IMG/VR virus record: IMGVR_UViG_2645728010_000003
DNA: 22,959 nt
Source: a virus
Lineage: Duplodnaviria; Heunggongvirae; Uroviricota; Caudoviricetes
Reading direction: 5' to 3' (one strand)
The translations under genes and the position numbers were made by a program. Positions 935 through 20,606 of the stretch are shown one piece after another. Each line of letters begins with the position of its first letter. Positions within the stretch are counted from its first letter, which is position 1. The notes below the pieces were generated by a model, which saw nothing but the letters and a program-made list of their open reading frames with translations, was not told the DNA's origin and made no database searches.

Positions 935-2620
935 GTGAATATAAACGTCGCCGAATTGTTAAATGGGAATTACATTCTGTTATTATTTGTGGTCCTCGCG
1001 CTTGGGCTATGTCTCGGAAAGTTACGACTTGGTTCGATCCAACTGGGTAATTCCATTGGCGTTTTAGTCGTATCGCTGTTATTAGGCCAACAACATTTCA
1101 GCATTAACACCGATGCGCTTAATCTTGGCTTTATGCTGTTTATTTTCTGCGTCGGGGTCGAAGCCGGACCGAACTTTTTTTCCATTTTTTTTCGCGATGG
1201 GAAAAATTACCTAATGTTAGCACTGGTGATGGTTGGCAGTGCGCTGGTGATCGCCTTAGGGTTAGGTAAGCTGTTTGGCTGGGATATTGGCCTGACGGCC
1301 GGTATGTTAGCAGGCTCTATGACGTCGACACCGGTTCTGGTCGGTGCTGGCGATACACTGCGTCATTCCGGCATGGAAAGCAGGCAGCTCTCACTGGCAC
1401 TGGATAATCTGAGCCTCGGGTATGCCTTAACCTATTTAATCGGTCTGGTGAGTTTGATTGTTGGTGCGCGTTACTTGCCGAAATTGCAGCATCAGGACTT
1501 ACAGACCAGCGCCCAGCAAATCGCCCGCGAACGTGGCCTGGACACTGATGCCAACCGTAAGGTTTATTTACCGGTGATCCGCGCCTATCGCGTCGGCCCG
1601 GAACTGGTGGCCTGGACCGACGGCAAAAATCTGCGTGAACTGGGTATTTATCGACAAACCGGCTGCTACATTGAACGTATTCGACGTAACGGGATTCTGG
1701 CAAATCCAGACGGTGATGCCGTGCTACAAATGGGCGATGAAATAGCGTTGGTAGGCTATCCCGACGCCCATGCCCGACTCGATCCCAGCTTCCGTAACGG
1801 TAAAGAAGTTTTCGATCGTGACCTTCTCGACATGCGTATCGTCACTGAAGAAGTGGTCGTTAAAAACCATAACGCTGTAGGTAAACGTCTCGCACAACTG
1901 AAGTTGACCGATCACGGTTGCTTCCTTAACCGCGTCATTCGTAGCCAGATTGAGATGCCGATAGATGACAACGTCGTGCTTAACAAAGGTGACGTTTTAC
2001 AAGTCAGCGGCGATGCCCGCCGCGTAAAAACCATCGCCGATCGCATCGGCTTTATCTCGATTCACAGCCAGGTCACTGACCTGCTGGCATTCTGCGCCTT
2101 CTTTGTTATTGGGCTGATGATCGGGATGATCACCTTCCAGTTCAGCACATTCAGTTTCGGCATGGGGAACGCTGCCGGGTTGTTATTCGCCGGAATTATG
2201 CTGGGCTTTATGCGTGCTAACCACCCGACCTTCGGTTACATTCCGCAGGGTGCATTAAGCATGGTGAAAGAGTTCGGCTTGATGGTGTTTATGGCAGGCG
2301 TTGGTCTGAGCGCCGGTAGCGGTATTAATAACGGCCTGGGCGCGATTGGCGGTCAGATGTTGATTGCCGGATTGATTGTCAGTCTGGTGCCCGTGGTTAT
2401 CTGTTTCTTGTTCGGTGCTTATGTATTGCGAATGAACCGCGCGCTGTTGTTCGGCGCAATGATGGGCGCACGTACCTGCGCGCCGGCAATGGAGATCATC
2501 AGTGATACAGCTCGCAGTAACATCCCGGCGCTGGGCTATGCGGGCACCTATGCAATCGCCAACGTCCTGCTGACGCTGGCAGGGACAATCATCGTCATGG
2601 TATGGCCAGGATTAGGATAA
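935..2620 (+). CDS. ybjL: Putative AAE-family transporter YbjL (GTG start)
   Basis: 561-aa polytopic membrane protein with central soluble domains; recognised as E. coli YbjL; start codon is GTG at 935. Confidence 0.93.
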
Positions 2621-2732
2621 AACTGAAGTTGCCCTGAAAATGAAATTTTTTTGCACAACCGCAGAACTTTTCCGCAGGGCATCAGTCTTAATTAGTGCCA
2701 CTGCTTTTCTTTGATGTCCCCATTTTGTGGAG

Positions 2733-2776
2733 CCCATCAACCCCGCCATTTCGGTTCAAGGTTGATGGGTTTTTTG
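2733..2776 (+). terminator. Stem-loop plus T-run downstream of ybjL (approximate coordinates)
   Basis: cccatcaacc ... ggttgatggg inverted repeat followed by tttttt; not anchored to an ORF boundary, so +/- a few nt. Confidence 0.4.
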
Positions 2777-2855
2777 TTGCCTGAAATTTATGCTCTTTAA
2801 AATCATGATGTTAGAAGCACTGTTTTTTAACGATGGCGACAAAATGGCGGCAGCG

Positions 2856-3074
2856 TCAAAGAGAGAGCGCCACCTGTCCTGATTTCATTGGATGCGGCTG
2901 AACCGGATTTGACTCTTTTGGCGTTGCAATCGAACGAACAAAAGTTTCATGAGTAACAAAAGTATGGCTGCAGTTAATGTTCTGGCACTGGTTGTAACGC
3001 TCTTTGGTCAATGAAGATACCTGAAAACTGCTGCGAGTATGGGCGGCACTTCCACACAGTGGGCAAATCATCAT
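2856..3074 (-). CDS. ogr: Ogr-type zinc-finger late-gene activator
   Basis: CPLCGSAAH ... CQNINCSHTF four-Cys pattern as in P2 Ogr; internal Met at 3072-3074 gives a 72-aa product (the track ORF has an 11-codon N-terminal extension). Confidence 0.85.
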   Translation of the reverse strand: MMICPLCGSAAHTRSSFQVSSLTKERYNQCQNINCSHTFVTHETFVRSIATPKESNPVQPHPMKSGQVALSL

Positions 3075-3164
3075 TTTTCGAGTTCTCCCCATTTTTGCTA
3101 AATTCACAATAATGATACCGCATTATTCCATTTTGAGAACTTAAAAGTTCTCCATTGCGAAGAA

Positions 3165-3565
3165 TCATTCCATTTCGAAATCATCAATCTTCACTTCAAG
3201 CTCCAGACTGGTCGTAAAACCGTTATCCGGGCTGACAGTATGCGTCAGGGTGGTAATAGTCCATTCCGCATCATCTATCGGCTGTTTAAAGCCACTGACT
3301 TTCACTGGCATTTCCGTGTAGAGATCTGCCCGCCCTTCCGCCAGTTGTAGCGAGAATGACGCAACGCCGCGTTGCAGGCGTTCCCACTGCATTTTCGCCG
3401 CTCGTTCGGCGTTGCTCCGGTTGGCATAAGTGCGATTAAGTACCAGCACGTTTTCATCCGTACCCACCAGGTAATCGCCCTGCTTCGCTTCCGGCTCTTT
3501 CTTCTGCTTCTTAGTTCTGCGCTTACGCTTCACCGTGGTGCTTTCTTTCTTCGCAGGTTCGCGGG
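3165..3565 (-). pseudogene. D: C-terminal remnant of P2 gpD-like tail protein
   Basis: C-terminal residues (NAERAAKMQWERLQRGVASFS ... LELEVKIDDFEME) resemble the gpD C-terminus; only about 130 codons remain, with no native start. Confidence 0.7.
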
Positions 3566-3811
3566 TAACTCTTCTATCAGCGTAACAAGATGCCGCATAC
3601 TGCGCCCCAACCTGTCCAGCTTCCAGACAACCAGCGTGTCTCCTGCCGATAGTGTCCTGAGCAGTTTTTTCAGCCCCGGTCTGTCGGACTTAGTGCCGCT
3701 GATTTTATCCTCAAAAATCCGCTCACATCCCGCGCAGTTCAGCGCACTACGTTGCAAATCGGTGTTCTGGTCATTTGTTGACACGCGTACATAGCCAATA
3801 AGCATGATCAT
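3530..3811 (-). pseudogene. pin: Pin/Gin/Hin-family serine invertase, N-terminal fragment only
   Basis: MLIGYVRVSTNDQNTDLQ catalytic-Ser motif and resolvase core up to about residue 82, then unrelated residues and a stop; the C-terminal HTH domain is missing. Confidence 0.75.
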
Positions 3812-3832
3812 CTCCTTGAATAAAAATCGGGG

Positions 3833-4375
3833 ATGATGCCAGTTAGTCGTAATCGCTGCATTTTCTTAAACGTTGGTTTGGGAGAAGACTCTGCATTACC
3901 TGTTGGGGTGCCTGTTCCGTGGCCTTCAGCCACTCCGCCTACAGGCTGGCTGAAATGCAATGGTGCAGCTTTTTCTGCTGAAGAATACCCGGAACTGGCA
4001 AAGGCTTATCCGACAAATAAATTGCCTGATTTACGTGGTGAGTTTATTCGTGGCTGGGATGATGGGCGTGGTATTGATGCTGGACGTGCCTTGCTAAGTC
4101 TTCAGAATGGAGGAGTGGAATCACACACCCACCAGGGACAGCTCTTCAGAGTCAGTGATTATCGTACAAAAGAAATACCAGCATCAGAAGTTATGGGAAG
4201 AGGATATATTGCAAGCCTGACGCCGGGTGCTGATAGCCCACTTGATTTTGATGATTATTCTGTATCCTCTAATCCAAATGGATATTTTGTCGGGAATCAG
4301 AGAACAACAGCATATGGGGTAAATGAAACCCGCCCACGGAATATTGCATTTAACTATATCGTGAGGGCTGCATAA
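3833..4375 (+). CDS. Alternative tail-fibre C-terminal cassette (Sv'-like), promoterless in the current orientation
   Basis: Tail-fibre tip-like sequence beginning at a conserved GLGE junction that matches GLGD in H; inverted relative to H. Confidence 0.6.
   Translation: MMPVSRNRCIFLNVGLGEDSALPVGVPVPWPSATPPTGWLKCNGAAFSAEEYPELAKAYPTNKLPDLRGEFIRGWDDGRGIDAGRALLSLQNGGVESHTHQGQLFRVSDYRTKEIPASEVMGRGYIASLTPGADSPLDFDDYSVSSNPNGYFVGNQRTTAYGVNETRPRNIAFNYIVRAA
3863..3886. other. hix/gix-like crossover site (TTCTTAAACGTTGGTTTGGGAGAA)
   Basis: Dyad resembling invertase crossover sites; shares a 13-bp core (TTGGTTTGGGAGA) in inverted orientation with 5950-5974 inside H. Confidence 0.45.
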
Positions 4376-4977
4376 TGGATAACGCTGTATTAAATAGCGA
4401 GCTTATTGCCACGAAGGCGGGAAATATTCCTGTCTATAACTATGATGGTGAAACACGGGAATATATTTCCACTTCAAATGAATATCTTTCCGTTGGTGTC
4501 GGCATTCCGGCATGTTCCTGTTTAGATGCCCCTGGCACACATAAGGCTGATTATGCAATCTGCCGTTCTACAGATTTTAACTCATGGGAATATGTGCCAG
4601 ATCATCGCGGTGAAATCGTCTATAACACCGAAACGGGAGATGCCAAAGAAATCACAGCTCCGGGTGATTACCCTGAAAATACAACCACTATCGCACCGTT
4701 AACGCCATACGATAAATGGGATGGTGAGAAATGGGTGACAGATACTGAGGCACAACACGGTGCCGCAGTAGAAGTGGCAGAAGCACAACGCCAGTCACTG
4801 ATTGATGCAGCAATGGCTTCCATTAGTCTGATTCAGCTGAAATTGCAGGCCGGGCGGAAGCTGATGCAGGCAGAAACCACCCGACTTAACATTGTGCTGG
4901 ATTACATTGACGCGGTGACGGCAACAGATACCAGCACCGCGCCGGATGTCATCTGGCCTGAACTGCCGGAGGCGTAG
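4375..4977 (+). CDS. Alternative tail-fibre assembly chaperone (Tfa'/U'-like)
   Basis: 200-aa ORF with Tfa-like conserved C-terminus (DYIDAV ... PDVIWPELP), translationally coupled to the Sv' cassette. Confidence 0.75.
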   Translation: MDNAVLNSELIATKAGNIPVYNYDGETREYISTSNEYLSVGVGIPACSCLDAPGTHKADYAICRSTDFNSWEYVPDHRGEIVYNTETGDAKEITAPGDYPENTTTIAPLTPYDKWDGEKWVTDTEAQHGAAVEVAEAQRQSLIDAAMASISLIQLKLQAGRKLMQAETTRLNIVLDYIDAVTATDTSTAPDVIWPELPEA

Positions 4978-5386
4978 GCCATTCAATATCTGGCACACTG
5001 GAGGTATCAACCAGCTCCAGTGCGTCCAGATAATCCAGCCACGAATTATATTGCGCCAGTTCCTCGCCTTTCAGACGACCAATAGCGGCTTTACCGGGCC
5101 ATTGTTTACTGTTCATGTATTCGTTGGCCTGATTAATTAATAGCTGTCTTTTTGACTCAGAAATTTCAATAAGTTCTTCATGCGTGGGTGAAGGAATATC
5201 TGCCCACGCAGGCATTCCGTCTGCACCTGCAATACGTCGCTTACCCTGCGGAGGTGTCGCCATAAACGACTCGGCACGTCGGGTTTCAATATCTTTTGCA
5301 TCATCAGGCCATGTGCCGGAATCGCGGTATACGGCCTCATTACCAGCCAGATAAAACGCATTTTTTTTAGCACTGTATTTGTACAT
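4949..5386 (-). CDS. G: Tail-fibre assembly chaperone (gpG/Tfa-like), expressed orientation
   Basis: 145 aa; C-terminus (LDYLDALELVDTSSVPDIEWP) parallels the Tfa' C-terminus; immediately downstream of H. Confidence 0.85.
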   Translation of the reverse strand: MYKYSAKKNAFYLAGNEAVYRDSGTWPDDAKDIETRRAESFMATPPQGKRRIAGADGMPAWADIPSPTHEELIEISESKRQLLINQANEYMNSKQWPGKAAIGRLKGEELAQYNSWLDYLDALELVDTSSVPDIEWPTPPAVQAR

Positions 5387-5387
5387 A

Positions 5388-7010
5388 TTATTTCCCTACC
5401 GCAATCCAGAAAAATGAACTCATGCTGGCTACTGGTGCTCCGCCCGCTGTTGGAATCATCAGATTTCGGACGCCGCATCCTAAATTAGTTATCGTTGGCG
5501 CTGAAATTACTGGCGACTGAACTACGTTAGGAAGCGATGCCTGCTGAGGACCAAATCCCACATACATCGGGTATGCAGAGAACGCGACAGGAAACGTAAT
5601 AAAGATCTCTCCAGTTGATGATGGATTGGCTGCCCCCCACTGAATAATCAGACCTGACGGTAATTTTTGCCAGCCAGGGCTGGTCAGGCTGGATGTGAAG
5701 TCATTCATATCCGGAATCTGATTTGCCCCTGAGCCAACATCCCTTTGAGCCGCACTTTTCAGATCAAGATAAGTTCTTAGTTCAGCCTTATCCTTACCGC
5801 TTAAATCTGTCAGTGTCTGGTCTTTTGGTTGCGCATAGTCTTTTGTTGCCAGACGAACTACTGTATTTGTTCTGGCGAATCGCATATACGGGGCATTGAC
5901 GTTACTACTGTCAAACCCTGCAATTTTACATTCATCACCAATTAATGCATCTCCCAAACCAAGGTATGCGAGAAGACCAGCTACATCCTTTCCACTCAAA
6001 TTAGTCAGCGTATTGTCCAACGGTTGTTTACCTGCCAGCGCATTAAGCATTGTCGTGGCAAAGTTCGGGTCATTCCCCAGCGCCGCAGCCAGTTCGTTCA
6101 GTGTATCCAGTGCAGCAGGTGCAGACCCCACCATTGCCGCAATTGCCGATTTCACAAAAGCCGTGGTGGCAATCTGTGTATTGTTAACCGACTGTGCGGC
6201 AGTGGGGGCTGTTGGCGTTCCGGTGAATGCCGGACTTAACAGCGGCGCTTTCAGTGCCAGCGCATTGTTAATGGTGGTACTGAATTTCGGGTCATTATTA
6301 ATGGCAGCGGCAATTTCTTTCATCGTATCCAGTGTGGCTGGCGCACCATTAATAAGGGCCATCAGTGCCGCCTGAACAAACGCGGTGGTCGCAATCTGCG
6401 TGGTGTTATTCCCCTCCGCTGGCGTTGGCGCTTTGGGTGTTCCGGTCAATGTCGGGCTTTCTTTGGGTGCATACTGTGAATGCGGGTCCGGTGCGGCAAG
6501 ATGTTTTGCCATCTTATCATCCACGAACACCTTCAGCTCCAGTACCTTGTCATCCACATACTTGCGGGTTGCCAGCACGACGGCAGGGTCGATTTTCAGG
6601 GTGATATTGTCCGTGCTGCTGGTAATCAGCACCATGCGCACGGTCTGGGTACGCCCACTGCCTTCAGCCAGTTGCGGCTTATAGCTTTCCGGGCAGTTTC
6701 CCACGGCAATCAATGCCCCGGACTCATCAAACAGGCCCACTTCACGTATCCACCAACCGCCCTCATTTTCAGGGATTACCTGTTCAGCAATAATCTGGCT
6801 ACTGTTCTGCGGGTCGATATAGAGCATATTCAGCGCAGCCCGGCGTTTCTCATTCACCAGTGCAGTCTGCTTTGCATCCGGCGTTGGCAATACTCCGCCG
6901 CCATCGCCGACCGCCATATGGGTAATTTTTAAAGGCACACCGAGCGCGGCGGCGCTGGCAAGTTTCGCCGCGCCAATATCCGTCAGCAGGGTATAAAATT
7001 TTGTGCTCAT
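5388..7010 (-). CDS. H: Tail fibre protein (gpH-like)
   Basis: 540 aa; conserved P2 H-type N-terminus, repeated NxxALxxKAPL / TGTPTAP collar motifs, variable C-terminus. Confidence 0.9.
   Translation of the reverse strand: MSTKFYTLLTDIGAAKLASAAALGVPLKITHMAVGDGGGVLPTPDAKQTALVNEKRRAALNMLYIDPQNSSQIIAEQVIPENEGGWWIREVGLFDESGALIAVGNCPESYKPQLAEGSGRTQTVRMVLITSSTDNITLKIDPAVVLATRKYVDDKVLELKVFVDDKMAKHLAAPDPHSQYAPKESPTLTGTPKAPTPAEGNNTTQIATTAFVQAALMALINGAPATLDTMKEIAAAINNDPKFSTTINNALALKAPLLSPAFTGTPTAPTAAQSVNNTQIATTAFVKSAIAAMVGSAPAALDTLNELAAALGNDPNFATTMLNALAGKQPLDNTLTNLSGKDVAGLLAYLGLGDALIGDECKIAGFDSSNVNAPYMRFARTNTVVRLATKDYAQPKDQTLTDLSGKDKAELRTYLDLKSAAQRDVGSGANQIPDMNDFTSSLTSPGWQKLPSGLIIQWGAANPSSTGEIFITFPVAFSAYPMYVGFGPQQASLPNVVQSPVISAPTITNLGCGVRNLMIPTAGGAPVASMSSFFWIAVGK
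5950..5974. other. Second crossover site, inside H at the constant/variable junction
   Basis: TCTCCCAAACCAAGGTATGCGAGAA; inverted partner of the 3863-3886 site; encodes LAYLGLGDA in H. Confidence 0.45.
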
Positions 7011-7612
7011 GGATTCACTCTCATTGTGTCAATAACATGGACCGCCCCGCCTTCATGCGCGGTGCCACCGGAAATAATTGTTTCGTTGATATACGGATAG
7101 ATCGTGATTTCTTCGCCAAGATAGCTGGCGGCTCCCACCCAATGCGGGCCGCTGGTCTGCAGGTTGATGGACATGCCGATCATGTGACGGCTGCATGGTT
7201 TGGCATCGCTTATCAGTCGCTCAAGTTCCAGATAGGTATCTTCAGTGATGCCCTGGTCCTGCACGCCGATATCCAGACGAAACGTGCCCGGTGTCTCTCC
7301 GGTCTGCCACCACTCAATAATGCGGATCAGAAAGCCGAACGGCTCCACCACCCGCCGCACGGCACTGGTGGTCCCTTTATGCTGATGAATATAAAAAGCA
7401 TCCTTCACCACCTGGCGCTTGACACTTTCTGTCCAGTCCTCGTCCCAGCGATCCACAGAGAACGCCCAGGCGAGATAAGGCAGGAAACTGACCGGACAGG
7501 TTGCCGGATTCCACAAGTCACGAAGCGGCACCTGCAGATCAGAAATCCCGCTGCAGGTTTGCGCCAGTCGGCGCTCCAGTGGTGTTGAACCCGGTGGCAG
7601 CAGACTATTCAT
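7007..7612 (-). CDS. I: Baseplate protein (gpI-like)
   Basis: Conserved gpI-like residues (LWNP.TCP ... LPYLAWAFSVDRWDE ... GTFRLDIGV). Confidence 0.85.
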   Translation of the reverse strand: MNSLLPPGSTPLERRLAQTCSGISDLQVPLRDLWNPATCPVSFLPYLAWAFSVDRWDEDWTESVKRQVVKDAFYIHQHKGTTSAVRRVVEPFGFLIRIIEWWQTGETPGTFRLDIGVQDQGITEDTYLELERLISDAKPCSRHMIGMSINLQTSGPHWVGAASYLGEEITIYPYINETIISGGTAHEGGAVHVIDTMRVNP

Positions 7613-8513
7613 CCGTTCCTCCGTTGGTTACGCTCCACTGCGTACATGATGCCGCCTGTGTTTTGTTCAGGACCACATCCGCCAGAGGAGAAGCCAGCTC
7701 CACACGCTGCACACCCTCAACATGCAAGGCGGCAAAGATGGCGCTACGGCGAATATCCCGACCAAGACGCGTCTGACTGGCGATGTACTTCTGCAGGCTG
7801 GCTTTTGCCGCTGCCATTACCGGCTCTGCTTCCGGTCCCGGATAGAGAAAAATGGTGGCTTCCACGCGATACGGGATGATTTCTGCGCTGCGAACCGTCA
7901 GACGGTCAGCCACCGGGCGGACGTTCTCACTGTTCAGGGCTTTTTCCACCACATCCAGCAGGTCTTTTTCTGCTGTTCCGTCGCCTTCACGGCTAAGGAC
8001 AGTCAGTACCACCTCTGCAGGTGCCGGACTGGTTGCACTGGCATCCGCCACCCGACCGTCGGCGCTTCGGGCATGAAATTCATAGGCTGCAGTTGGCCCC
8101 GCAACTGAAAGCCCTTCAAAGGCTGCAGGCACACGCAGGCGTAACGCTTCATCGCTTTCCATCACAGCCGCAACGGGCGGCACAGCGTCATTATCAGCAG
8201 GCGTCACCGTCAGGCGTTTCACGTTGTAGTTGGCAGCGAGCTGGTCAAGATCGCCGCCCATCGCGTAAGCCACCATCACCGCCTGCGCGGCTTCGTTAAT
8301 GCGCTGGCGCAGAAGCAACTCACGGTAAGCATTCTCCTGCAGCAATTTGGTGACGGGTTCAGATTCCAGTTCCAGCGTGCGGATCACGGCTTCCTGCTCA
8401 TCTTTCGGATGAAGCGCAACAAATTCGGCCTTGCGTTCGGCAAGCAACGTCTCAAAGTCCGGCACATCGACAATCTGCGGCGCAGGCAACTGCGAAAGGT
8501 CAATCACTGCCAT
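7605..8513 (-). CDS. J: Baseplate protein (gpJ-like)
   Basis: 302 aa from the internal Met (MAVIDLSQLPAP...); the track ORF has a 13-codon upstream extension. Confidence 0.88.
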   Translation of the reverse strand: MAVIDLSQLPAPQIVDVPDFETLLAERKAEFVALHPKDEQEAVIRTLELESEPVTKLLQENAYRELLLRQRINEAAQAVMVAYAMGGDLDQLAANYNVKRLTVTPADNDAVPPVAAVMESDEALRLRVPAAFEGLSVAGPTAAYEFHARSADGRVADASATSPAPAEVVLTVLSREGDGTAEKDLLDVVEKALNSENVRPVADRLTVRSAEIIPYRVEATIFLYPGPEAEPVMAAAKASLQKYIASQTRLGRDIRRSAIFAALHVEGVQRVELASPLADVVLNKTQAASCTQWSVTNGGTDE

Positions 8514-8859
8514 TCTCTGCTCCTGTTGATACGGAAAGGGAAACAGGCACACCGTTATTACGCCGCCCGGTCAGTCCCACCACCATTGAACCGTCAAAAT
8601 TGCTGTTAATGGTGATGGAATCCAGCGTCAGCCGTGGCTCCCAGCGACTCAGCGCCACATACACTGCCGACATGACCTGCAGGCGTAACGCCGGATTTTG
8701 TGGCTGGTCTATCAGTGCCGACAGCAGGGAACCATATTCACGGCGAGCAATGCGGCTACCCTGCGGCGTCAGCAGAATGTCCCGCACCGACTGGCGCAGA
8801 TGGTCAATATCAGTAATGACTTTGCCGCTGGTATTGTTCATCCCGCTATAAAGCGTCAT
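8500..8859 (-). CDS. W: Baseplate wedge protein (gpW-like, gp25 family)
   Basis: 119 aa, position between V and J, gpW-like sequence. Confidence 0.82.
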   Translation of the reverse strand: MTLYSGMNNTSGKVITDIDHLRQSVRDILLTPQGSRIARREYGSLLSALIDQPQNPALRLQVMSAVYVALSRWEPRLTLDSITINSNFDGSMVVGLTGRRNNGVPVSLSVSTGAENGSD

Positions 8860-9434
8860 ACCGGGCCTCCGGTTGTATCGCCGCCTTTCAGGACGCCAGT
8901 ATGCTGATGCGCATCAACCACGATCCCGTTAGAACTCATCGCTCCGCCGCCCTGGGTAACGCCACCATTGATCACCACTTCGCTGTTAATGCGCGTGCGG
9001 TCAGCCTCCAGTACAAACTCACTGGTTTTCATGGTGATGTTATCAGCGGCCTCAATGACCATTGATTTGATGCCCCTGACATACCAGCGCCCGGTGGCGG
9101 GTTCGTATTCAAACCAGCCACCGTCAGGATGTTCTGTCACGCAGGCGTCCGCCGACGTCGACGGTGGTGCGAACTGATTCGAATAGACAGCGGGCAGCGC
9201 AAAGGCAGTCTCCAGATTGCCGCCCAGACTCAGCAGCACCACCTGCTCACCTTCCGATGGTCGCCACCATGTGCGGGCATTACCCGCGCGCAGCGTCAGC
9301 CAGCTGATCCAGTTGGTTTCAAGGTCGCCCGTTTTCACCCGACAAAGCCAGTTTTCCCGGTCCACTTCGGTGACTACACCTATGCGGATCAGATTGGTGA
9401 TAAGGCGCATGATTTCGGTTAGTTGTGCGTTCAT
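8856..9434 (-). CDS. V: Baseplate spike/hub protein (gpV-like)
   Basis: Starts at internal Met (MNAQLTEIMRL...) at 9432-9434; the longer track ORF extends into the divergent moron. Confidence 0.85.
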   Translation of the reverse strand: MNAQLTEIMRLITNLIRIGVVTEVDRENWLCRVKTGDLETNWISWLTLRAGNARTWWRPSEGEQVVLLSLGGNLETAFALPAVYSNQFAPPSTSADACVTEHPDGGWFEYEPATGRWYVRGIKSMVIEAADNITMKTSEFVLEADRTRINSEVVINGGVTQGGGAMSSNGIVVDAHQHTGVLKGGDTTGGPV

Positions 9435-9537
9435 AGATATATGATGACAGCTGAAAACTTGTTTATAACTTCTTGCAAATTGTGGTATCGATGGTACAAA
9501 TTGATAAAAGGATAAAAAACAACCAATAGGTGGATAA

Positions 9538-10344
9538 ATGAGTGTTATGAATCCAATAAGTTCTAATATATTTAATGCTGAATTTTTAAACACCCCGGCA
9601 GCGGCACTTGCCGCATGGATTTCCATTATTGGAGCTGTTATAACTTTGGTGACGATAGTTATAAGAGCACTATTCAAATATAGAAAATCTCATGATGTAA
9701 TTTTGAAAAAATCAGGAATACCTGCGTTTATATTAAATTTTTTTCTTATACGAATATCATTAAAAAGGCTGCCTACTATCACATGGGCTGAAAAATCAAT
9801 CACGGTTCTCTTTTCACTTCTTTTTTTGTGTGCAATTTATATTTTTGGTCCAGTTTTCATCCAAGCCATTAGAACCCCACCAAATAGCACATTGCTTTAT
9901 TGGATAAAGTCCGGTGAATCATTTTATATGTCAAAAAAACTGGCGACTGCAGCTACAATATTAACCACTCCTGATTGGGAAATATCAAAAGATGATTGCG
10001 AAGAGTCATCCTCTGCCAGTACAGAGAAGTACAAATCATTAACTATCGAACATAAAGAAATTCTTTGTAAACTACTAACCACTGATGAAGGGAATACTTA
10101 CATTGATGAAGAAGTCAAGAATTTCGTTAAAGACAAATTCTTTATCTATTCCTTTGCCCCAACAACCATATTTATTCTATTATGGATTTCTTTGGGTTTT
10201 ATACTGACCATTCACTATTCTAAAAAAGTTAGGAAATATATTCTGACTGAACAAAAAAATGCAATTCATTGGGCATATGGTGAATTCAAGACAGAAGGAA
10301 TCTATTCAATATATCACGAGTTAGAACGTAAGACTCACCATTAA
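9538..10344 (+). CDS. AT-rich moron: polytopic membrane protein of unknown function
   Basis: 268 aa, about 4 predicted TM helices plus a charged soluble domain; AGGTGGA Shine-Dalgarno 5 nt upstream; low GC against a GC-rich late operon; opposite strand to flanking V and S. Confidence 0.7.
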   Translation: MSVMNPISSNIFNAEFLNTPAAALAAWISIIGAVITLVTIVIRALFKYRKSHDVILKKSGIPAFILNFFLIRISLKRLPTITWAEKSITVLFSLLFLCAIYIFGPVFIQAIRTPPNSTLLYWIKSGESFYMSKKLATAATILTTPDWEISKDDCEESSSASTEKYKSLTIEHKEILCKLLTTDEGNTYIDEEVKNFVKDKFFIYSFAPTTIFILLWISLGFILTIHYSKKVRKYILTEQKNAIHWAYGEFKTEGIYSIYHELERKTHH

Positions 10345-11409: not shown

Positions 11410-11680
11410 GTTTCAGTTCCTCGATCCGGTGTTGTCGTTGTCTCAGCAGTGCACTGGTCTGTTCTGCTTCGGCATAGAGCCGCGCCTGCTCCCGGTTATT
11501 GGTTTCAGTCAGAATGGACAGGCTGATAAGCTGGCTGTTTTTCTTCGTCAGTTCCTGCGCTTTACTTTTCAGCGCCGCGCGCTGCGTTTCGATGGTGTGG
11601 CTGGCGCTGTTAAGCCGCCACGACTGCCAGCCCAGCGCAACGAGTGCCAGCGCCACCACTACTGCCAGCGCACGCGTCAT
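11252..11680 (-). CDS. lysB: i-spanin (LysB/Rz-like)
   Basis: N-terminal TM helix then coiled-coil periplasmic region; 142 aa. Confidence 0.7.
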   Translation of the reverse strand: MTRALAVVVALALVALGWQSWRLNSASHTIETQRAALKSKAQELTKKNSQLISLSILTETNNREQARLYAEAEQTSALLRQRQHRIEELKRENEDLRRWADTPLPADIIRLRERPALTGGTAYRQWLSASDAVSAGSGNAAH

Positions 11681-11816
11681 AGTCCAGCTCCTTTAAGGCA
11701 CCAGGCCATCTCCCGCGCACGGCGGTTATCCAGCCCCTGATTAAACACACCTTTTACATAAACCCAGCGCGGCAACTGTCGGCACGCATCTGCCCAGCGC
11801 CGCTGATTGAGCAATT

Positions 11817-12569
11817 TCACCAGTGTGGAACTACAGGCATTGCCCGTTGCTGCTTCTGCAGAGCAGACTCCAGTTCAGACAGGCGTTCTTCCTGCTCAGA
11901 CAGAGATTTTTCGGTTCGCGCGCTCAGGTTTTGCTGCTCAGTGGCGACCAGCTCCACGGCCTTATGCACATCAGAGAACCGGGCGTCATCGGACTGCTCT
12001 TTTTTGGTGAACAGCGCCGTGACGCGGGAAAACAGGGACGGTTTGTCGTCCTGGACTTCCTCCAGTTCGATCACCGTTTCCTCTGCAGCGGTAAAGAGAT
12101 TGGCAGGATTCTGCTTGCGGTTTGCCAGCGGGTTATGGGCTGCACTGGCGCTGAATGTCAGCATTTCAGTGCCCAGACTGGCAGGGTCATCAGTGGCAGC
12201 CAGGCCGACCAGGTAGGCTTTGCCCGTATCAGCGAACTTCGGGCTGACTTCCATAGAGGTGAATAATTTCTGGCCTTTTTTCACCAGTTCCACCAGGGAC
12301 TCCGTTGGCTCAACGTCGGCATACAGCGCCATCTTGCCTGCCAGCGGACCTTCCGTGATTTCCTCAGCAAACAGCGCCGTCACCTTGCCGTAGCGGTTAA
12401 AGGTGCTGTCCGGCAGATAAGACTTGATGTGCTCAAGGTTAATCAGCGCGGTATACACCGCCGGGTTGTAGCTGGCTGCCATCTGTTCCAGCCATTCACG
12501 CTGGATTTCGCGTCCGTCGGTGGTGGCACCTTCCACCCCGATGCGAAAACGCTTTGCTTTCACTGTCAT
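11817..12569 (-). CDS. O: Capsid scaffold protein (gpO-like), C-terminally truncated
   Basis: RFRIGVEG ... INLEH ... YLVGLAATDDPASLGTE motifs of gpO; about 30 aa shorter than P2 O, and 137 bp from lysB with N, M, L, X, Y, K and lysA absent. Confidence 0.85.
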   Translation of the reverse strand: MTVKAKRFRIGVEGATTDGREIQREWLEQMAASYNPAVYTALINLEHIKSYLPDSTFNRYGKVTALFAEEITEGPLAGKMALYADVEPTESLVELVKKGQKLFTSMEVSPKFADTGKAYLVGLAATDDPASLGTEMLTFSASAAHNPLANRKQNPANLFTAAEETVIELEEVQDDKPSLFSRVTALFTKKEQSDDARFSDVHKAVELVATEQQNLSARTEKSLSEQEERLSELESALQKQQRAMPVVPHW

Positions 12570-15511: not shown

Positions 15512-15531
15512 CGAAGACCATTAGGTCTTCG
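15512..15531. terminator. Bidirectional hairpin shared by convergent Q and retron RT
   Basis: cgaagacc-atta-ggtcttcg with T-rich flanks on both strands; the RT stop codon lies in the loop. Confidence 0.6.
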
Positions 15532-16483
15532 CTTTATTTAAAGGGTTCTTTCCATATTTTTTTTCTAATTTGCTAATATAAGTTATTAATCTCCTATGGC
15601 TTTTTGAATCCACACTTAAAATAAATGACAACCATCCCCTAACGTGTTCTATCTCAGAAGACTTACCGCAAAATATATGATGTATCTTTGCTCTAATTTC
15701 TTTATATTTTTCTCTACCTATCCCAACTTTCTCTTGTGAAATAACTAAACCTGTAACTTTCCTCTGACTACGAGGCCCACTAATACAAGTTTTTTTTGAG
15801 TTAATAACCAATCCTTCACTTGGGATTATAGAAAATAAAAAATCACGTGCTTTAACAACCTTTTTCATAGACTGTGCAGATAAGGTGAGATCATCGGCAT
15901 ATCTCGTATATATCAAGCCCCGACTACCTGCATAACCCTGAATACGATAATCAAGTTTAGAACATATTAGATTAGCTAATTTAGGTGATGATGGAGCACC
16001 TTGTGGTAGCAGATTTTTATAACAACATATTTTTGTCAAAACTGAAGATATTAGTCGATTATAACCAAGAGAATGGAACACTCCAAAAACTTTGTTAGCA
16101 GTTAAACTTGGGAAAAAATCCTCCAAATCAATATTCAGTATAAAGTTTGCCCCAATATGCGGGGTAGCATTATTCAAAATAGATTGGTGCTTTTCAAATC
16201 CAATAGAAAAAGGAGATGACGACAGTTTATCTAAAATGTTACGTAGAACCCATCCTTGTAAGGCTTTAAGTTCTCGAGAAGGTTGGTAAATGGTTCTCAT
16301 TCTCTTCTCTGGGCCTTTCTTTTCTACAGTGTAGATCCTATAGCGAAAATCAGCTGTATAGATTAACAACCGAAGTGTTTCAACAGATATGCGAGTCGCC
16401 TTAGACATGTCATGCAAATTGTTCATGACAGGTAGGCCGAGATTTCTCAATCTAAAAGTGTTCAAATATTCAGCGGATTTCAT
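15521..16483 (-). CDS. ret: Retron reverse transcriptase (Ec86/Eco1-type)
   Basis: 320 aa; RT motifs including LPQGAPSSP and YTRYADDLTLS (YADD box); directly downstream of the msr-msd locus; matches my memory of the Ec86 RT. Confidence 0.95.
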   Translation of the reverse strand: MKSAEYLNTFRLRNLGLPVMNNLHDMSKATRISVETLRLLIYTADFRYRIYTVEKKGPEKRMRTIYQPSRELKALQGWVLRNILDKLSSSPFSIGFEKHQSILNNATPHIGANFILNIDLEDFFPSLTANKVFGVFHSLGYNRLISSVLTKICCYKNLLPQGAPSSPKLANLICSKLDYRIQGYAGSRGLIYTRYADDLTLSAQSMKKVVKARDFLFSIIPSEGLVINSKKTCISGPRSQRKVTGLVISQEKVGIGREKYKEIRAKIHHIFCGKSSEIEHVRGWLSFILSVDSKSHRRLITYISKLEKKYGKNPLNKAKT

Positions 16484-16489
16484 GAAAGT

Positions 16490-16658
16490 TGCGCACCCTT
16501 ACGTCAGAAAAAACGGGTTTCCTGGTTGGCTCGGAGAGCATCAGGCGATGCTCTCCGTTCCAACAAGGAAAACAGACAGTAACTCAGATTCAATGCAGGA
16601 TGCCGAAACAACATCCAGAGGTTGACCTTAATGATAAACCTCTCGCTAAGGGTGCGCA
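16490..16658 (-). ncRNA. msr-msd: Retron msr-msd non-coding RNA (msDNA template)
   Basis: Flanked by 12-bp inverted repeats a2 (16490-16501, TGCGCACCCTTA) and a1 (16647-16658); internal perfect 10-bp hairpin at 16533-16556; minus-strand sequence matches what I recall of Ec86 msr/msd. Confidence 0.9.
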
Positions 16659-17569
16659 TACGGAATCTTATCATAGTTAAATGTTGATTTTCTACGGTTT
16701 TCAAAATTCATAATCTCAAGCCGCAATCGGTCAAGTGTCTTTCTATCAAAGACGCTCCTAACATAGCTAGCCCCCAAAGCAGTGACCTGATAACCATCAG
16801 TCATTTGAAGTATTTTTCGTTCATTTATTAGACGAGAAACAACGGATCTAACAATAATTTTAGATAAAACATCATCTTGCTTTATCGCTTTAAAAGCTAG
16901 TTCACACAGTGTGCGGTAGTTGACACTATCCAGTAAATAGATACAAGGCAATAGAAACCGCTCTGCGTATAATATATTTCCAATATCTTTTGATACTTTA
17001 TTTTCTTTCCTAACCTTCTTAATAGATGCCATTAATTTTTTATATAATCGTAATTTTCTGGCAACATCAATAGATGAATCACACATTTCTTTTAGTTCAT
17101 TTGAACTACAACGCAAAACAGATTTTGAATTAAACTTACGCAACAGGCGAACAGGACCATAGTTAATAAAGCTACGTTTTGATTTAAATTTTGCATCTTG
17201 AATGCAAATCAACTTTCTCCTTAAGTTTTCATTATTAGAGAACGCACCAAGCTCTGTGAAAGACCCCGGACTTTCAGGAAATAAAATTATTACATCGACA
17301 GCTTCAGCCAGAATATTTTCTAAACTTAAAAGGCTATGCTGCCCTTGACCAGCCAAAAGATCATCAAATAGATCTTCTGGATAAAATATATCAACATCAC
17401 TGAACTTTGCTAAAAATTGTGATAATTGATGACGCCAAGATTGATGATTAGCAACGTCACCACCACATAGAAAAATGGTTATTTTAATATTAGCTCCTCG
17501 ATAGAAGCCTTTCTTTGTGAGATGTCCTATAAGCTGTTGTTGCTGCTCATCGGTAAATTTTTTATTCAT
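16646..17569 (-). CDS. Retron effector, nucleoside 2-deoxyribosyltransferase-like N-terminal domain plus C-terminal domain
   Basis: 307 aa directly upstream of msr; Rossmann-like IFLCGG ... ILFPESPGSFTELG pattern; stop codon overlaps a1; GGGGAG RBS. Confidence 0.8.
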   Translation of the reverse strand: MNKKFTDEQQQQLIGHLTKKGFYRGANIKITIFLCGGDVANHQSWRHQLSQFLAKFSDVDIFYPEDLFDDLLAGQGQHSLLSLENILAEAVDVIILFPESPGSFTELGAFSNNENLRRKLICIQDAKFKSKRSFINYGPVRLLRKFNSKSVLRCSSNELKEMCDSSIDVARKLRLYKKLMASIKKVRKENKVSKDIGNILYAERFLLPCIYLLDSVNYRTLCELAFKAIKQDDVLSKIIVRSVVSRLINERKILQMTDGYQVTALGASYVRSVFDRKTLDRLRLEIMNFENRRKSTFNYDKIPYAHP

Positions 17570-19154: not shown

Positions 19155-20606
19155 TTAATACAGGTTCCGCCACTTATCATCTTCCTTCAGACGCTGGTTC
19201 CGATAGAAGATACGCAGGCCTGCTCCTGACGGAATACTGCCGCCGCGAAGGAGCAAATCGACTTCTTTCTCGCTGCCATCAAATCCCCTGGACTTCAGTT
19301 CATAGACGAGCTGCTGTCGCTGATGGTCTGTAATTCGCTGTTTGTAGTCTTTACGCCGTTTCGGTTTCACCTGGCGTAACCTTGCAGCCAGTTCCCGGCG
19401 CTCTTTTTTGCTCATACTGTGCAGGTAATTGTGCAACTCCTTGTCATTCATACGGGTAATATCCGTTCTGGAGTCCCCATCAGCTGATTTGTCTTTCCCT
19501 TGTTGGTTCAAATTTTCAGCAAGGGGACAGTTATTGCCACGAGTCCAAGGGGCGCAAGCGCCCTGGTCGGCTGCCGCCTCCTGAACGTCAACGGCCTTAC
19601 GAACCATTTTCCACTTCACCGCATGAGTGCAGATCTTGCCCTCTGCAATGGGTGACCAGATGCCATAAATACGAATACCGTGATCGCCATATGCGGTCGG
19701 TTCTTCGTTGATTTCATAAGCAGTTCTGATGAGGTGATATTTGCGGGGAACCAGTACGCCGCCCTGCTTCATGATGTAGGTGGCAAAACAACCAGCATCA
19801 GCAGCAGCCAGGATTGCATCAAGACGCGGGTTATCCAGTACCGGCGCACCTGCTTTTTTGTCACCCTGTTGCCTTGCCGCCTGACCAGCCAGCAATCGCA
19901 GTTCACGGTAAGCCTGACGCCCCGGAATGCCAAAGAAGCGGAATTGCTGAACACGATGCAGAGACGCCCAGGCATTAACGTATTCAGCGTTATCACGCAG
20001 GGATTTACCCGTTTCCTTGCTGATCTCCCCAGCCAGACCACGCCCGTCAATGTTCTTACTGATGTATTTCGCGATATAGCTTGTTGGCGTACCTTTGCGC
20101 GGGTTTATCAGCTCAGACTTAAAGCGTGGTCCCGTGTTATTGCCCAGCTCCTCGCGGTCTTCACGGATGGCAAACTTACGCAGTAATGCAGTGATGGCGC
20201 GGCGGTCTTTTTTACGCATGAAACACATGAGATGCCAGTGCACAGTACCGTCATGATGCGGCTCAGCTACCGCACCTGCAGCAACACGCCCGATCTCTGC
20301 GGTTGCACTCATGACGTAATGTGGCAGTTTCTCTTTTGCCACCTCATTAATCGGTACGCATGGCAGGCAGTGAATCTGAGCCAGAAAACCATCTACCAGC
20401 GTTGAATCTTCAGTCAGATCGGTAAGCAGCCAGATTTCTGGTGCGGTTAATAAATGAGGTTGCGCTGGGTTCAACTTGTTCCGCAGAATCTGCACATTCA
20501 TGCCAGCACGTTCTGCCAGTTGCACCAGGTTGTGGCGCAATGCGAATGCACGACAGGCTTCATCAAAATGTGGATGTTTGGAAACTTGGTAATCAAACAT
20601 GGTCAA
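19155..20606 (-). CDS. A: Chimeric ORF: CII-like N-terminus fused to a rolling-circle initiator (gpA-like) C-terminal part; probably a deletion product
   Basis: First ~115 aa resemble phage regulatory protein CII ([18 protein letters not shown] ... [24 protein letters not shown]); the rest carries HUH-like HWH and YIAKYISK tyrosine motifs; 483 aa, well short of an intact gpA. Confidence 0.75.

Follow-up and report, generated by a model that had tools for sequence, protein, structure and literature searches.

The P2-like prophage at rybB in Escherichia coli B carries, at positions 3165-3811 of the window (the whole analysed stretch of 22,959 nt), what is very probably the mark left when one illegitimate deletion took out 6,906 bp in the ancestor of the B strains. 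This deletion would have killed a Gin/Cin/Pin-type DNA invertase and locked a tail-fibre inversion switch, which should still be flippable by an enzyme supplied in trans.

In a megablast search of complete E. coli genomes, positions 2700-4400 are 100% identical over their full length to BL21(DE3), REL606, ATCC 11303, and other B-derived strains, and in total 44 genomes, here called B-lineage, match at 100% over the full length. By its sequence, the window is E. coli B chromosome; the RefSeq annotation of BL21(DE3) around the match has it begin with grxA, ybjM, and ybjL, enter a P2-like prophage, and end at the integrase of this prophage. The record NZ_CP029371.1, labelled 'Escherichia coli strain C, cow's milk', also contains the B-specific junction at 100% identity, and it may be a B-lineage strain under another label. 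The prophage retains the P2 gene order: int, cI, A', retron, Q, P, O', K', lysB, R, S, V, W, J, I, H, G, invertase', D', ogr, and then RybB. The RybB sRNA (2700-2778, + strand; Rfam, 105 bits) lies directly outside ogr and marks the right-end attachment site. The late-gene activator ogr (2856-3074, - strand; Pfam Ogr_Delta, E = 6.7e-22) is intact and is the last prophage gene before attR; its protein (WP_000972391.1, from a PGAP CDS) is identical to the ogr of intact relatives. With ogr at the right end beside the attachment site and collinearity with the intact relatives, the element is P2-like (Peduovirus-type). A P2-type prophage, Rybb*B, has been listed at rybB in E. coli B together with retron Ec86 (PMC3032704, Table 2). 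The sequence of the window fits this known defective prophage, and the two are the same element with no difference between them.

Two regions of the prophage deserve mention beside its gene order. A retron reverse transcriptase gene (about 15521-16408, - strand) and an effector gene (about 16646-17569, - strand), annotated as retron St85 family, are flanked by the portal gene and the early region; together (about 15521-17569) they are the locus of the E. coli B retron Ec86. In an Rfam scan of the window, RybB was the only match, and the retron msr/msd RNA had none at the gathering threshold. A DUF6216 gene (9538-10344, + strand) is inserted on the opposite strand between the baseplate gene V and the tail gene S. 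It is absent at that position in the intact relatives 1008S19 and KP12, where similarity stops at 9436 and restarts at 10335, and strain A41 has a different gene (DUF6602) at the same spot. The DUF6216 gene is likely a moron cargo gene.

Intact prophages at the same site beside ybjL, those of E. coli AR_0085 and 1008S19, served as references, 1008S19 being the closer of the two. Both have the gene order ogr, D, U, T, E', E, FII, FI, invertase (188 aa), Sv', tfa, tfa, H, I, and J. The 1008S19 prophage is 98.9% identical to the window over 974-3567 and 99.5% identical over 5947-9436, and BL21(DE3) encodes identical ogr, I, J, and W proteins. In a base-by-base comparison, the window agrees with 1008S19 through 3567 on the D side and from 3565 on the invertase side. 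The junction is thereby mapped to 3565-3567, where a first-pass annotation had placed it near 3566 and had proposed alignment with intact prophages and a search for microhomology. The shared nucleotides at the junction are GTA when 1008S19 is the reference and a single A when AR_0085 is used.

The lost content can be read directly from the same comparison. One contiguous block of 6,906 bp is missing, of the same size against 1008S19 and against AR_0085. It comprises 698 of the 1,101 nt of D from the 5' end (63%) and 329 of the 567 nt of the invertase gene from the 3' end, both genes being truncated in the window, as well as the whole of U (486 nt), T (3,078 nt), E' (120 nt), E (303 nt), FII (516 nt), and FI (1,173 nt). 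Among the lost genes, FI encodes the sheath, FII the tube, E/E' the chaperone, and T the tape measure. The first-pass annotation had ascribed the loss of the 3' part of pin, FI, FII, E, T, U, and most of D to one deletion. The contiguous gap against 1008S19 bears out this content, 'most of D' being roughly right, and we infer a single step.

The junction sequence itself is that of illegitimate end joining or slippage with minimal homology, as far as its few shared bases indicate, and not of homologous or site-specific recombination. Under a simple random model, about 5% of junctions would show an overlap of 3 nt or more. Since the microhomology is both reference-dependent (3 vs 1 nt) and subject to this chance rate, it says little about the mechanism. 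Two trivial or alternative origins were ruled out: an assembly artefact, by the presence of the junction at 100% identity in 44 independently assembled B-lineage genomes, and an IS-mediated or homology-mediated deletion, by an overlap of just 1-3 nt with no IS or filler at the junction.

Instead of an internal deletion, the junction could represent recombination between two P2-like elements, one donating the invertase and tail-fibre genes and the other D and ogr. P2-like phages are mosaic, and a second P2-type element is listed at cyaR in E. coli B (PMC3032704, Table 2). Klebsiella P2-like phages share 99.4% identity with the D/ogr side, and the invertase side is nearest to E. coli prophages. 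However, one intact rybB prophage, that of 1008S19, has counterparts of both sides (98.9% and 100% identical) with order and orientation unchanged. The Klebsiella phages also contain both pieces: in a phage megablast search, D-type similarity covers 3100-3567 and invertase-type similarity 3567-3887, and the same Klebsiella P2-like phages have these pieces about 6.9 kb apart. Only 1-3 nt are shared at the junction, which was therefore not produced by homologous exchange. An origin from two elements is accordingly held to be very improbable.

An internal deletion is thus preferred, and the number of steps in which it took place can be considered in the light of a second prophage. In E. coli WWCOL-315, the rybB-site prophage has a separate, independent invertase-D fusion, in which 375 nt from the invertase gene and 882 nt from D meet at a 6-nt microhomology (positions 9729-9734 of that locus). 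As in B, these two genes are fused to one another and the tail module from FI to U is gone. The breakpoints are different, about 6.3 kb is lost, and the prophage has a second deletion of its own, in which a tail-fibre assembly gene is joined to a lysozyme fragment. No third case with invertase and D pieces within 900 bp was present in the genome ranking that gave the 44 B-lineage matches. The existence of the WWCOL-315 fusion, whose missing block lies wholly within the block missing in B, and of at least two other deletions in the B prophage raises the thought that the B scar is the end product of at least two overlapping successive deletions, for example of a smaller one like that of WWCOL-315 which was later enlarged. 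The WWCOL-315 flanks, however, are 98.0% and 94.4% identical to B, and this prophage is therefore not the direct ancestor; moreover, the B junction is without filler or extra scar, and one event is more parsimonious. A stepwise origin is thus considered hardly probable, although a single event cannot be proven, as nested successive deletions would leave the same scar. Under the preferred single deletion, a non-homologous event at the level of microhomology in the rybB prophage of the strain from which all laboratory E. coli B descend would have spanned invertase codon 80/81 to D codon 233/234, and the sheath, tube, chaperone, tape measure, and U genes would have gone with it.

The part of the invertase gene that survives is its 5' end (3568-3805, - strand), codons 1-80 of 188, recognised by Pfam Resolvase and by identity to 1008S19. 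The longest ORF here (3530-3811, - strand; 93 aa) begins at an upstream ATG at 3811; homology places the real start at ATG 3805 (MLIGYVRVS...), from which the remnant is 91 aa long. The cut falls after residue 80 of 188 when counted from ATG 3805 and after Leu82 when counted from ATG 3811, and the latter corresponds to the cut at about codon 82 that had been proposed. The invertase side (3568-3811) is identical at 244 of 244 nt to the intact gene for the 188-aa invertase of 1008S19. Pfam Resolvase (PF00239) matches residues 5-82 of the ORF (profile positions 2-89 of 145, E = 1.7e-28), and this N-terminal resolvase-type catalytic domain keeps the catalytic Ser9 (numbered from ATG 3805). In the intact relative, Resolvase extends over residues 3-135 (profile positions 2-144), Pfam HTH_7 occupies residues 138-181, and residues 1-184 align end to end with Mu Gin (PDB code: 3UJ3; E = 5.6e-92). 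The remnant has neither a complete catalytic domain with the long E-helix, to which the profile would extend at about residue 135, nor the C-terminal HTH_7 DNA-binding domain. At the tail of its ORF, the invertase frame instead runs on into D DNA out of frame (3530-3564, - strand), and this adds 11 alien codons (PANLRRKKAPR) before a TGA stop (3530-3532). The first-pass annotation had described just such a protein, with the catalytic-Ser N-terminus kept, the DNA-binding C-terminus lost, and 11 codons read from D in another frame.

Given what is known of serine recombinases, a fragment that has the catalytic Ser and is without the E-helix and the HTH would be nonfunctional, since these are the parts that are missing, and it should neither bind nor recombine the crossover sites. 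In BL21(DE3), PGAP describes it as 'recombinase family protein, incomplete, missing C-terminus', a pseudogene. The ORF stays open for 91-93 codons without a single change from one B strain to another, as might be the case if the truncated invertase with its 11 codons were a functional small protein under selection, either a regulator or a dominant-negative catalytic domain. This conservation is uninformative, however, because all B strains belong to one laboratory lineage of recent origin. Besides the pseudogene call, the tail of such a protein would be out-of-frame D, its dimerisation/E-helix region and DNA-binding domain would be missing, and a crude sigma-70 scan gave no promoter-like site upstream of 3805-3811, the sole sites being one upstream of ogr and one at chance level on the + strand. 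A functional role for the fragment is considered extremely improbable.

On the other side of the junction, the 3' remnant of the tail/baseplate-hub gene D (3165-3567, - strand) consists of the last 133 of 366 codons and the stop, and 390 of its 403 nt are identical to the intact D of 1008S19. As seen from the translations, its frame differs from that of the invertase at the fusion. The ORF at 3165-3533 (- strand) matches only the C-terminal end of Pfam Phage_GPD (PF05954; profile positions 220-302 of 305), at 29.0 bits and thus just below the cut-off of 30.1, as opposed to 96.3 bits over positions 28-302 for the D of the intact relative. PGAP describes the D fragment of BL21(DE3), which abuts the invertase fragment, as 'contractile injection system protein, VgrG/Pvc8 family, incomplete, missing N-terminus'. 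Both fragments are already pseudogenes in RefSeq, and the scar as such is ordinary and already known. The base-level breakpoint, the 3-nt microhomology, and the inventory of the surviving switch were not found in the literature searched, and literature searches on the defective P2-like prophages of B yielded nothing specific to the invertase-D junction; both searches covered literature other than the original B genome papers of Jeong (2009) and Studier (2009).

The crossover sites of the switch lie upstream of the invertase remnant, where Pfam identifies a tail-collar fragment and two tail-fibre assembly genes. The invertase-proximal 26-bp crossover site is at 3861-3886 (TTTTCTTAAACG TT GGTTTGGGAGAA), and the distal 26-bp site is within the tail-fibre gene H at 5949-5974 (ATCTCCCAAACC AA GGTATGCGAGAA), inverted with respect to the proximal one. 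The inverted repeat pairs 3861-3885 with 5950-5974; after reverse complementation, 20 of the 26 positions match, and the cores read TT and AA on the + strand. The core dinucleotide was checked, and the two inverted sites share it and bound the variable end of the tail fibre. Similarity to many phages ends at 3887, and that to 1008S19, at 99.5%, sets in at 5947. Since similarity breaks at these two positions, both crossover sites are mosaic boundaries, as is expected of such sites. The segment from 5138 to 5946, which covers the expressed variable end of H and part of its assembly gene, has no counterpart in the otherwise near-identical 1008S19 prophage. Because similarity to 1008S19 resumes at the crossover site, relatives have exchanged whole cassettes at this boundary.

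The invertible segment between the sites measures about 2.1 kb (3874-5961), as defined from its ORFs and the Pfam Collar and Caudo_TAP domains. It contains the silent Sv' (3887-4375, + strand) and its assembly gene (4375-4977, + strand), followed by the expressed assembly gene (4949-5386, - strand) and the expressed variable end of H (5388-5961, - strand). When 3874-5961 is inverted in silico, the constant part of H joins Sv' in frame to give a protein of 516 aa, the present H being 540 aa long. A third cis element, a putative enhancer, may be retained within the invertase remnant itself. In the P1 record, the recombinational enhancer occupies nt 19-90 of cin. P1 cin aligns without gaps to the remnant over its 5' 238 nt, and the homologous segment falls at 3716-3787 (- strand); from this homology we infer that 3716-3787 may function as an enhancer, which in Din-family switches is Fis-dependent and lies in the 5' part of the invertase gene.

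The arrangement resembles the Gin/G segment of Mu, the Cin/C segment of P1, and the Pin/P segment of e14, in each of which a serine invertase lies by an inverted 26-bp-site segment that swaps the C-terminal end of the tail fibre together with an assembly gene. The layout Sc / Sv-U / U'-Sv' mirrors that of P1, and the stretch homologous to the enhancer is again found early in the invertase coding sequence, although P1 cin points toward cixL and the B invertase gene points away from its segment. The B switch differs from the Din-family switches in that it has the cis sites and no enzyme, the invertase being cut at 80 of 188 residues.

The orientation of the segment is uniform in B. A query spanning the junction and the crossover site matched 44 of 44 B-lineage genomes at 100% in a single orientation, a synthetic flipped-junction query found no B genome that covers the flipped arrangement, and thus the two orientations do not both occur within these 44 genomes. 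The flipped arrangement of the same cassette is present in the non-B strain PF9285, at 92% identity, beside a gene annotated pinE. In K-12, pin is borne by the element e14. Another Din-type invertase that keeps the B switch active was ruled against, as e14 is listed as absent from B (PMC3032704, Table 2) and the sensitive search described here gave none. With the 244-nt remnant as query, sensitive blastn found one place in each B chromosome and no second invertase-like sequence, down to a limit of about 65-70% identity, the search being one of chromosomal DNA that a distant serine invertase or a plasmid-borne one would escape. For comparison, genomes with any match to the remnant have a median of two places.

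Since the fragment is without the E-helix and HTH_7, the segment has one orientation in 44 of 44 genomes, and no other invertase-like sequence is present, the evidence supports the conclusion that the tail-fibre switch is locked in its present orientation for want of an enzyme. The first-pass claim of a frozen switch is upheld in this sense, namely that the switch is frozen for lack of the invertase only. With the deletion as the cause, the 2.1-kb tail-fibre segment would be held in its current orientation. Because both 26-bp crossover sites and the enhancer-homologous stretch look intact, it is plausible that Cin of P1, Gin of Mu, or Pin of e14, supplied in trans, could still flip the segment.

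The invertase-D junction is not the only deletion in this prophage. At about 11842-11848 (genes about 11677-12569), the lysozyme gene K, reduced to a 3' fragment, abuts the capsid scaffold gene O, which is without its 3' end; about 3.1 kb has been lost relative to Klebsiella phage KP12 (the rest of K, Y, X, L, M, and N), and the flank alignments overlap by about 7 nt. At about 20264-20275 (genes about 19155-20600), the replication endonuclease gene A has lost its 5' end and is fused to a CII-like regulatory gene that is itself truncated, with a loss of about 3.4 kb relative to KP12 and an overlap of about 12 nt. Genes at these two places are called partial by PGAP. Because these two further large deletions disable the same prophage, the frozen switch is inconsequential for phage production. 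In K-12, a cryptic P2 remnant at cyaR is listed as ogr-D' (PMC3032704, Table 2). This decayed P2-type prophage likewise retains, at the right end, ogr and only the 3' part of D. It differs from that of B in that nearly the whole prophage is gone, whereas B keeps about 20 kb and its D' is fused to an invertase fragment.

The surviving cassette may be cis-competent and invertible on infection or lysogeny by P1 (through Cin), Mu (through Gin), or a P2-like phage that carries an invertase. Taken with WWCOL-315, this might even mean that rybB prophages recurrently lose the sheath-to-U module and keep the tail-fibre genes as a recombination reservoir for incoming phages, a suggestion offered only tentatively and one that is rather doubtful at present. 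The finding raises no new biological question and has little importance beyond its possible use in the engineering and annotation of B strains and in studies of prophage decay. For E. coli B, it provides a base-resolution record of one of the three deletions that killed the P2-like prophage of BL21 and REL606, which rank as the most used strains for protein expression and experimental evolution, and it suggests that the tail-fibre inversion switch in these strains is without its enzyme and otherwise intact.
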